From a virus (taxonomy: Duplodnaviria; Heunggongvirae; Uroviricota; Caudoviricetes): DNA of 20,820 nt. Below the pieces are notes generated by a model, which saw only the letters and a program-made list of their open reading frames with translations, was not told where the DNA came from and made no database searches. Shown here in pieces: positions 17,105 through 20,820 of this stretch. The position numbers were made by a program, and so were the translations under genes. Location: IMG/VR virus record IMGVR_UViG_2778261009_000002; one strand, 5' to 3'. Position 1 is the first letter of the stretch; each line of letters begins with the position of its first letter.

Positions 17105-20100
17105 ATGGGTAAAGGAAGCAGTAAGGGGCATACCCCGCGCGAAGCGAAGGACAACCTGAAGTCCACGCAGTTGCTGAGTGTGATCGATGCCATCAGCGAA
17201 GGGCCGGTTGAAGGTCCGGTGGATGGATTAAAAAGCGTGCTGCTGAACAGTACGCCGGTGCTGGACACTGAGGGGAATACCAACATCTCCGGCGTCACGG
17301 TGGTGTTCCGTGCCGGTGAGCAGGAGCAGACACCGCCGGAGGGGTTTGAATCCTCCGGCTCCGAGACGGTGCTGGGTACGGAAGTGAAATATGACACGCC
17401 GATCACCCGCACCATTACGTCTGCAAACATCGACCGTCTGCGCTTTACCTTCGGCGTGCAGGCACTGGTGGAAACCACCTCAAAGGGGGACCGGAATCCG
17501 TCGGAAGTCCGCCTGCTGGTTCAGATCCAGCGTAATGGTGGCTGGGTGACGGAAAAAGACATCACCATTAAGGGCAAAACCACCTCGCAGTATCTGGCCT
17601 CGGTGGTGGTGGGTAACCTGCCGCCGCGCCCGTTCAATATACGGATGCGCAGGATGACGCCGGACAGCACCACAGACCAGCTGCAGAACAAAACGCTCTG
17701 GTCGTCATACACCGAAATCATCGATGTGAAACAGTGCTACCCGAACACGGCACTGGTCGGCGTGCAGGTGGATTCGGAGCAGTTCGGCAGCCAGCAGGTG
17801 AGCCGTAATTATCATCTGCGCGGGCGCATTCTGCAGGTGCCGTCGAACTATAACCCGCAGACGCGGCAATACAGCGGTATCTGGGACGGAACGTTTAAGC
17901 CAGCATACAGCAACAACATGGCCTGGTGTCTGTGGGATATGCTGACCCATCCGCGCTACGGCATGGGGAAACGTCTTGGTGCGGCGGATGTGGACAAATG
18001 GGCGCTGTATGTCATCGGCCAGCATTGCGATCAGTCGGTGCCGGACGGTTTTGGCGGCACGGAGCCGCGCATCACCTGTAATGCGTACCTGACCACACAG
18101 CGCAAGGCGTGGGATGTGCTCAGTGATTTCTGCTCTGCGATGCGCTGTATGCCGGTATGGAACGGGCAGACGCTGACGTTCGTGCAGGACCGACCGTCGG
18201 ATAAGGTGTGGACCTATAACCGCAGTAATGTGGTGATGCCGGATGATGGTGCGCCGTTCCGCTACAGCTTCAGCGCCCTGAAGGACCGCCATAATGCCGT
18301 TGAGGTGAACTGGATTGACCCGAATAACGGCTGGGAGACGGCGACAGAGCTTGTGGAGGACACGCAGGCCATTGCCCGTTACGGTCGTAACGTCACGAAG
18401 ATGGATGCTTTTGGCTGTACCAGCCGGGGGCAGGCACACCGCGCCGGGCTGTGGCTGATTAAAACAGAACTGCTGGAAACGCAGACCGTGGACTTCAGCG
18501 TGGGTGCCGAAGGGCTTCGCCATGTACCGGGCGATGTCATTGAAATCTGCGATGATGACTATGCCGGTATCCGCACCGGCGGGCGCGTGCTGGCGGTAAA
18601 CAGCCAGACCCGGACGCTGACGCTCGACCGTGAAATCACGCTGCCATCTTCCGGCACCACGCTGATAAGCCTGGTTGACGGGCAGGGGAGTCCGGTCAGC
18701 GTGGAGGTTCAGTCCGTCACCGACGGCGTGAAGGTGAAAGTGAGCCGTGTTCCTGACGGCGTTGCTGAATACAGCGTATGGGGGCTGAAGCTGCCGACGT
18801 TGCGCCAGCGCCTGTTCCGCTGCGTGAGTATCCGTGAGAACGACGACGGCACGTATGCCATCACCGCCGTGCAGCATGTACCGGAAAAAGAGGCCATCGT
18901 GGATAACGGGGCGCACTTTGACGGCGACCAGAGCGGCACGGTAAATGGTGTCACGCCGCCAGCGGTGCAGCACCTGACCGCAGAAGTCACCGCAGACAGC
19001 GGGGAATACCAGGTGCTGGCCCGCTGGGACACGCCGAAGGTGGTGAAGGGCGTGAGCTTCCTGCTTCGCCTGACCGTGGCAGCGGATGACGGCCGTGAGC
19101 GGCTGGTCAGCACGGCCCGGACGACGGAAACCACTTACCGCTTCACACAACTGGCTCTGGGGAACTACAGGCTGACAGTCCGGGCAGTAAATGCGTGGGG
19201 GCAGCAGGGCGATCCGGCGTCGGTATCGTTCCGGATTGCCGCACCGGCAGCGCCGTCGCGGATTGAGCTGACGCCGGGCTATTTTCAGATAACCGCCACG
19301 CCGCATCTTGCGGTTTATGACCCGACGGTACAGTTTGAGTTCTGGTTCTCGGAAAAACGGATTGCGGATATCAGGCAGGTTGAAACCAGCGCGCGTTATC
19401 TTGGTACGGCACTGTACTGGATAGCCGCCAGTATCAATATCAAACCGGGCCATGATTATTATTTTTACGTTCGCAGTGTGAACACCGTTGGCAAATCGGC
19501 ATTCGTGGAGGCTGTCGGTCAGCCGAGTGATGATGCATCAGGCTATCTGGATTTTTTCAAAGGCGAGATAGGGAAAACCCATCTGGCTCAGGAGCTGTGG
19601 ACGCAGATTGATAACGGTCAGCTTGCGCCTGACCTGACTGAAATCAGGACGTCCATAACGGATGTCAGCAATGAAATAACACAGACCGTCAATAAGAAAC
19701 TGGAAGACCAGAGTGCAGCGATCCAGCAGATACAGAAGGTTCAGGTTGATACAAATAATAACCTGAACAGCATGTGGGCAGTGAAGCTGCAGCAGATGCA
19801 GGACGGACGCCTTTATATTGCGGGTATCGGTGCCGGTATTGAGAACACCCCTGACGGCATGCAGAGTCAGGTGCTGCTGGCAGCAGACAGGATTGCGATG
19901 ATTAATCCTGCGAATGGCAACACAAAGCCGATGTTTGTTGGTCAGGGCGATCAGATATTCATGAATGAAGTGTTCCTGAAACGCCTGACGGCCCCCACTA
20001 TTACCAGCGGCGGTAATCCTCCGGCATTTTCCCTGACATCAGACGGGAGACTGACGGCGAAAAATGCGGATATCAGTGGCAGTGTGAATGCGAACTCAGG

Positions 20101-20602
20101 AACGCTCAACAATGTCACGATTAACCAGAACTGTACGATTAAGGGCATGCTGGAGGCGACCCAGGTCAGAGGAGATTTCGTTAAAGCTGTATCAAAAGCC
20201 TTCCCGAAAAAAGTCGGTACGTGGGGTAACACGGAAACACCAAACGGTACGGTTACAGTCACCATCAGCGATGATCATAACTTTGACCGCCAGATTATTA
20301 TTCCGCCCATTATTTTTAACGGTATAGCGTATGACGATCCGGGGAGCGGAAATAACCCAGGAGGCACGCGATACACGGGTTATGGTTTTGAAGTTCGCAA
20401 AAACGGCGTATTAATCGCATCCAGAGAAACTAAAGGGGCCATTCCCGGTAGTTACAGTGCAGTTATTGATATGCCGAGTGGCAGGGGAAGCGTCACTCTG
20501 GAGTTTAAGATTTTCCAGAAAGGCAATCAGGGGGCAGGCAATATCACCGACTGTACGGTGATTGTGACCAAAAAAGCCGCTTCCGGCATCAGTATTCGTT
20601 GA
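17105..20602 (+). CDS. J: Central tail fiber / host specificity protein J, with C-terminal receptor-binding domain apparently divergent from lambda
   Basis: 1165-aa ORF with ATG at 17105 after GAGG. The N-terminal ~1000 aa match my memory of lambda gpJ (1132 aa) closely, including the fibronectin-III-like central region. The last ~150 aa differ and the protein is about 33 aa longer. Confidence 0.95.
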
Positions 20603-20623
20603 AATATTTATAACCCCAATAAA

Positions 20624-20649
20624 GGGCGTCAGGAATGACGCCTTTTTTA
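20624..20649 (+). terminator. Rho-independent terminator downstream of J
   Basis: GGCGTCA-GGAA-TGACGCC stem-loop (7-bp stem) followed immediately by TTTTTT, about 22 nt after the J stop. Confidence 0.6.
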
Positions 20650-20672
20650 TTGCAGAAAAGCGAGAGGTAATT

Positions 20673-20820
20673 ATGCGTAAAGTTTGTGCAGCAATTTTGT
20701 CCGCAGCCATTTGTCTGGCCGTATCCGGTGCGCCTGCATGGGCGTCTGAACATCAGTCCACGCTGAGCGCGGGGTATCTTCATGCCTCGACGAACGTCCC
20801 CGGCAGTGATGATCTGAACG
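20673..20820 (+). CDS. lom: Outer-membrane protein Lom (Ail/OmpX family), 5' partial; continues beyond window
   Basis: ATG at 20673 preceded by GAGAGG. MRKVCAAILSAAICLAVSGAPAWASEHQSTLSAGYLHASTNVPGSDDLN has a signal peptide with AWA cleavage motif and a near match to the lambda Lom N-terminus as I recall it. Truncated by the window end. Confidence 0.85.
   Translation, partial: MRKVCAAILSAAICLAVSGAPAWASEHQSTLSAGYLHASTNVPGSDDLN

Follow-up and report, generated by a model that had tools for sequence, protein, structure and literature searches.

A lambda-like J gene that combines a 434-type receptor-binding module with a separately exchanged shaft block

Introduction

The host-range allele of phage 434 is the classical example of a swap in the tail fibre gene J, by which a lambda-like phage changes its receptor from LamB to OmpC. 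The C-terminal part of J sets host specificity (PMC3509688, PMC11101478). When the tail-fibre gene of 434 is put in place of lambda J, the phage switches to OmpC, which 434 itself uses (PMC3509688, PMC11101478). The h434 allele has served as a genetic tool from early lambda genetics onwards (PMC9119081), and the 434 central fibre is treated as OmpC-targeting (PMC12502783).

Structurally, the end of lambda gpJ is built from an alpha-helical shaft (residues 809–861), a beta-sheet prism and an Ig-like receptor-binding domain, of which four bottom loops enter the LamB trimer. On binding, the domains spread, the prism twists, the shaft refolds and the tail tip opens (PMC11101478). Indels in J are concentrated at four hot-spot loops near residues 1012, 1048, 1077 and 1107, both in natural homologues and in the evolution of lambda towards OmpF use (PMC6646904). 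That study (Maddamsetti et al. 2018) described the specificity region as an independently recombining part of J, left the receptors of the natural lineages unassigned, and noted further indel peaks in the upstream part of the gene whose meaning it left open.

Two other lambda-like fibres using OmpC are relevant here. A8 is the gpJ C-terminus of a natural Escherichia coli prophage engineered onto lambda (Brodel et al. 2024, PMC11338833). The enterohaemorrhagic siphophage phi330 has a lambda-like J-type fibre for which OmpC was established by knockout and complementation; the same work compares this fibre with that of 434 and gives its receptor-binding domain only 35–40% identity with the 434 and lambda domains (PMC12502783).

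Here, we describe a J gene in a stretch of 20,820 nt, referred to throughout as the window and numbered from its first letter. An initial annotation of this DNA had proposed that the C-terminal receptor-recognition part of J was a swapped module and that the swap might alter receptor specificity.

Results and Discussion

The window and its J gene

The window is a lambda-like left genome arm that extends from the terminase genes to lom; the side tail fibres fall outside it. It is ~97% identical to the isolated lambda-like phages PhiR26_1, PhiR42_1 and Kati over 94–98% of its length. Lambda itself matches at ~97% identity across 95% of the length, and the match stops at position 20156. Gene J, encoding the tail tip and central tail fibre (host specificity protein), occupies 17105–20602 on the + strand and is an intact open reading frame of 1165 codons, as originally annotated, with the peptide quoted there present in the translation. 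The lambda protein has 1132 residues and that of phage 434 has 1137.

All six gpJ domains are found in the order FNIII-A_GpJ, Phage-tail_3, Ig_J, Ig_J_second, Phage_Tail_Tip and Ig_GpJ_C. This bears on the question of whether the gene belongs to a decaying prophage remnant and is no longer functional, a reading suggested by the fact that most occurrences of the sequence are in bacterial chromosomes. As well as the intact frame with its full set of domains, there is a complete set of lambda-like head and tail genes in the remainder of the window, ~97% identical to those of isolated phages, and the region 19300–20820 is 99.9% identical in the plaque-forming isolates Kati, ev243, PhiR42_1, PhiR34_1 and PhiR68_2. 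Given the unbroken frame and the near-identical segment in phages that form plaques, we reject decay, to which we would allow only a very slight chance.

Overall, the J protein is 82% identical to lambda J by BLASTP, but the identity is very unevenly spread. Residues 1–805 (17105–19461), comprising the hub domains and two FNIII/Ig domains, form a conserved chassis that is 98% identical to both lambda J and 434 J and aligns with lambda without gaps; at the DNA level, 19100–19460 is 96.7% identical to lambda. Residues 961–1003 are again close to lambda (93% identity, no gaps). The initial annotation had J following lambda as far as the sequence NANSGTL near residue 1000; this does not hold for residues 806–960 (19520–19984), which are only 55% identical and carry a 28-residue insertion. 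Divergence after NANSGTL was correctly recognised, residues 1004–1165 having 64 of 151 aligned positions (42%) in common with lambda J and 17 gap positions, so that the C-terminus is far from near-identical to that of lambda. Because 28 of the 33 residues by which J exceeds lambda's length lie in the upstream block (residues 806–960), a net gain of only 5 falls to the C-terminal domain.

Position of the breakpoint

The window, lambda and phage 434 (OL657226) were aligned three ways and every informative site was classified by which pair agrees. The 28 sites in 19100–19462 are mixed and mostly lambda-like. In the following interval, 19463–19984, the window stands alone at 131 of 138 sites, where lambda and 434 are alike. 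The pattern then switches: the window sides with 434 at 214 of 226 sites in 20098–20602 and at 91 of 106 in 20603–20820, that is, at 305 of the 332 informative sites downstream of the switch. The difference in the counts of window-unique and 434-siding sites between the upstream block and the 434-like tract is highly significant (Fisher p = 2e-96).

The switch itself can be placed closely. The last window-specific site is at 20059 and the first 434-specific site at 20098, and between them are 38 nt (20060–20097, + strand) in which window, lambda and 434 are all alike and no site is informative. This crossover zone lies in a conserved stretch coding for beta-prism and ending in NANSGTL; the wider junction, 19985–20107, has 90–93% identity in all three pairs. 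The start of the divergent region had been put at 20100, in good agreement with this zone. The right-hand crossover of the 434-type tract is beyond the end of the window.

The sharpness of this boundary, within 38 nt, is difficult to reconcile with a C-terminus that changed away from lambda where it stood, through point mutations accelerated by diversifying selection and with no recombination. The J specificity region is indeed fast-evolving and under diversifying selection (PMC6646904), but a module that is ~97% identical to 434 and only ~53% identical to lambda, a level near saturation, is not what such a process would be expected to leave. Moreover, all four combinations of shaft type with domain type are present in sequenced phages, and the swapped tract extends into the intergenic region and lom. 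The three-way alignment refutes in-place divergence, which we regard as having next to no chance of being correct.

From the sequence comparison, the region is therefore a recombinant in three parts: a lambda-like body, a shaft block from a third party, and a 434-type receptor-binding module together with lom. The junction is a real mosaic junction and the swap proposed at the outset is supported by the sharp switch at 20060–20097 followed by 434-type sequence. The module is a known host-range module, ordinary and already catalogued; what had gone unrecognised was that it is a named and long-known allele, that a second swapped block lies upstream of it, and that the tract runs on into lom.

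The 434-type receptor-binding module

The module extends over 20098–20602 on the + strand and encodes the last turns of the beta-prism and the Ig-like receptor-binding domain. Beyond J the same type of sequence goes on to position 20820, and over the whole tract from 20098 the identity is ~97% with both phage 434 and lambda h434 imm21 but only ~53% with lambda. Within J the corresponding figures for 20108–20602 are 97.6% to 434 (483 of 495 nt) and 52.8% to lambda. The 503-nt segment 20100–20602 is 100% identical in Kati, phiSTEC1575-Stx2k and PhiR68_2 and 97.4% identical in lambda h434 imm21, a laboratory hybrid with the h434 host-range allele, whereas lambda-type phages align to only its first ~110 nt, at ~74%.

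In the receptor-binding domain (residues 1004–1165), 157 of 162 residues (97%) are as in 434 J. The differences from window to 434 are N1047D, R1127G, I1136V, Q1138H and G1143R, and the codon differences in the domain, six of them synonymous and five non-synonymous, point to recent common ancestry. Residue 1143 (20531–20533), in a loop whose counterpart in the lambda alignment is the 1107 host-range hot spot, is glycine in the window, arginine in 434 and tryptophan in lambda h434 imm21.

Relative to lambda J, indels occur at 1011/1012 (+2), 1043/1044 (+6), 1078/1079 (+1) and 1100–1114 (+2 and −6). These four sites all coincide with the four hot-spot loops described previously (PMC6646904), and the same pattern of indels is found in 434 J and the lambda h434 allele (OL657226, OM418627), which also share with the window the downstream terminator and the type of lom. 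The specificity region is thus near-identical to that of 434 J and distinct from lambda's; the lambda domain, which binds LamB, is only 42% identical to it and differs by indels in all four hot-spot loops, so the gene lacks the lambda-type specificity region found in the LamB-binding gpJ. As a region of J with a history of its own, separate from that of the rest of the gene, it is a textbook instance of the independently recombining region of Maddamsetti et al. (PMC6646904); apart from the receptor assignments that are missing there, the two cases have no substantive difference. Modular exchange of this region was published in 2018, and the window is another clean example of it.

Family and fold of the domain

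Residues 1029–1164 match Pfam family PF12421 (Ig_GpJ_C), which Pfam describes as the C-terminal receptor-binding domain of tip attachment protein J, scoring 88.9 bits (E = 4e-25; curated cut-off 26.2) over profile positions 1–134 of 135. It lies where it would be expected: the hub, FNIII/Ig and tail-tip fibre domains come first, and this domain closes a full-length J. Among PDB sequences, the best match was A8 gpJ (E = 1e-58), with lambda gpJ at E = 1e-50, both across the whole 204 residues.

An AlphaFold2 (AF2) model of the J C-terminus, calculated with 24 homologues, is all-beta with pLDDT ~80–93 over the Ig-like domain (model residues 70–200); the prediction is of a monomer, and the N-terminal prism part is poorly modelled that way. 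The predicted fold is an Ig-like beta-sandwich that matches solved gpJ structures, the top Foldseek matches being 8xcj (lambda gpJ-LamB), 8xck (the closed lambda fibre), 9wca (closed A8 gpJ) and 9wcb, with E between 1e-18 and 3e-16. For 9wcb, A8 gpJ bound to the OmpC of EDL933, the TM score is 0.70 on the target. The indel positions with respect to lambda are all in or beside inter-strand loops of the model.

The relationship to the two solved systems can be summarised as follows. Lambda gpJ in its complex with LamB (8xcj, 8xck; PMC11101478) belongs to the same Pfam family and has the same fold at the same position at the end of the beta-prism, and the ~43 residues preceding the domain are 93% identical to the window. 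The mechanism is presumably shared as well, with loops entering a trimeric porin and the signal travelling up the prism and shaft. A8 gpJ (9wca, 9wcb) is the best PDB sequence match to the window domain and a good match in fold, but the two domains are only 48–53% identical and are consequently of different lineages. Recognition of OmpC may have arisen separately in the A8 and window lineages, or their loops may have diverged.

Receptor expected for the module

The 97% identity to the 434 domain is the basis on which we infer dependence on OmpC, and the module is most probably directed at OmpC rather than LamB. We consider it very probable that the C-terminal ~165 residues of J represent the 434 (h434) allele recombined onto a lambda-like J body, with OmpC the expected receptor. 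The scheme we propose is as follows. Homologous recombination, with a crossover in the conserved stretch 20060–20097, joined a 434-type domain to a lambda-like J, and the swapped tract extends past the J terminator into lom, which is likewise of the 434 type. By analogy with lambda, three copies of the Ig-like domain at the tip of the central fibre would reach with their variable bottom loops into a porin trimer, which for the 434 allele is expected to be OmpC, not LamB. Binding would then trigger a lambda-like rearrangement of the beta-prism and helical shaft by which the tail tip opens.

The recorded host of PhiR34_1 and mEp332, which have the 3' J–lom segment at 98.9–99.9% identity, is E. 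coli K-12 MG1655. These records are compatible with the use of a K-12 outer-membrane protein. A literature search for the phages with an identical or nearly identical allele (the PhiR collection, ev243, Kati, mEp332, mEp460 and phiSTEC1575) found no receptor assay; the sole study found on the PhiR phages concerns the tape-measure protein and ManYZ and contains no outer-membrane receptor assignments. Two 35-nt strings from the domain were also compared with the supplements of PMC11338833, the question being whether the gpJ chimera 1A2 is of the 434 type, and gave no match in the material covered, which may not include the sequence files.

Near-identity to 434 does not strictly guarantee the same receptor, as in phi21 one mutation in J adds a receptor (PMC11336670), and the fine specificity of the window allele could differ from that of 434. 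The domain would then still be of the 434 type, but its five substitutions, with or without the longer shaft, would have shifted or broadened its specificity towards particular OmpC alleles or another porin such as OmpF or LamB. There are precedents: single or few J substitutions add receptors in lambda and phi21 (PMC6646904, PMC11336670), and two natural gpJ chimeras, A8 and 1A2, differ in which of 23 OmpC variants they recognise (PMC11338833). N1047, R1127 and G1143 are predicted to lie in or next to loops, and G1143, in a hot-spot loop, is at a position that is polymorphic among 434 stocks. Against this, the domain is 97% identical to that of 434, prophages of E. coli commonly carry the allele in conserved form, and there is no sign of a receptor other than OmpC. 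On balance, we think it unlikely that the five substitutions and the 28-residue longer shaft retune the allele. If they did, particular shaft alleles would belong functionally with particular receptor-domain alleles, and the two could not be combined at will.

The second mosaic block

The upstream block (19462–20059, + strand) encodes a variant alpha-helical shaft and upper beta-prism, with 28 extra residues (63 + 21 nt) located inside the shaft, and is unlike both lambda and 434. Over 19520–19984 the DNA is 65% identical to lambda and to 434 and the protein 55%, whereas lambda and 434 are 98–99% alike over the matching region. In position, the block corresponds to the lambda gpJ shaft (AHS, 809–861) and CSF. 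The counterpart of residues 806–960 in 434 J is thus lambda-like, and the window has another allele there, 28 residues longer, in addition to the five substitutions in the domain.

The block is found at 96–100% identity in many other phages with various receptor-binding domains. Lambda_ev087, 1H12 and PhiR46_1 have this shaft with a domain that is not of the 434 type; conversely, 434, mEp460 and PhiR49_1 have the 434-type domain with a lambda-type shaft. Among sequenced phages, therefore, the second block assorts independently of the type of receptor domain. A heptad scan of the enlarged shaft (residues 809–893) found no single coiled-coil register, and a break, NGQLAPD, is present. For this reason we make no claim that the 28-residue insertion (4 × 7) keeps a coiled-coil in register.

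The junction with lom

Between J and lom, a hairpin (GGCGTCA-GGAA-TGACGCC) followed by TTTTTT can be read on the + strand at 20625–20648; the automated hairpin scan listed 20625–20648 on the − strand only. The element is terminator-like, and the homologous site in the 434 record is annotated as a terminator. The 5' part of lom, encoding an outer-membrane protein of the Ail/Lom family (Pfam Ail_Lom, E = 1e-24), begins at 20673 on the + strand and is cut by the end of the window at 20820, leaving its first 49 codons inside. Over 20681–20820 the sequence is 94% identical to 434 and 49% identical to lambda; lom is of the 434 type, and the imported tract thus extends beyond J.

Base composition

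The lower G+C content reported for the 3' end of J is borne out in magnitude, with 47.9% over 20100–20602 and 41.7% over 20281–20340, but not in its point of onset, since the drop starts at ~19300–19500 and not at 20100. By comparison, the part of J coding for residues 1–805 has 59.5% G+C and lambda's equivalent C-terminal segment 54.8%. G+C at third codon positions (GC3) falls from 72% for residues 1–805 to 50% for 20100–20602, and just 8.7% of the 503-nt segments across the stretch are as AT-rich as 20100–20602. The low G+C at the 3' end of J follows from the composition of the imported module.

Prevalence and significance

The allele is common. The exact 1165-residue J protein is present on 627 contigs in public databases, where it is named host specificity protein J. 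Four complete E. coli genomes have the 1521-nt 3' J–lom segment (19300–20820) at 100% identity, and 1173 of 5426 complete genomes have a site that covers 80% or more of it. There are records of close homologues from Shigella sonnei and E. albertii as well.

For annotation, the J gene of this lambda-like phage or prophage can be entered as 434-type, probably OmpC-dependent and not LamB-dependent. This has a bearing on the prediction of host range, on the choice of indicator strain and on the J alleles available for retargeting lambda particles, which have already been retargeted with other OmpC-binding gpJ variants (PMC11338833). Beyond annotation, its importance is slight.

Other open reading frames

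Two further open reading frames were observed on the − strand. One, of 582 residues, lies antisense within the G+C-rich part of J (17705–19453) and is most likely an artefact of the high GC3 (72%) of the coding strand. The other, of 177 residues, is at 143–676 (start at 676, stop codon at 143–145) and matches DUF1398 (PF07166, E = 3e-46). It sits in a stretch of 32–37% G+C at the start of the window (1 to ~700), with the small terminase gene (1793) ~1.1 kb further downstream, and looks like an accessory gene of the moron type, close to the prophage's cos end.
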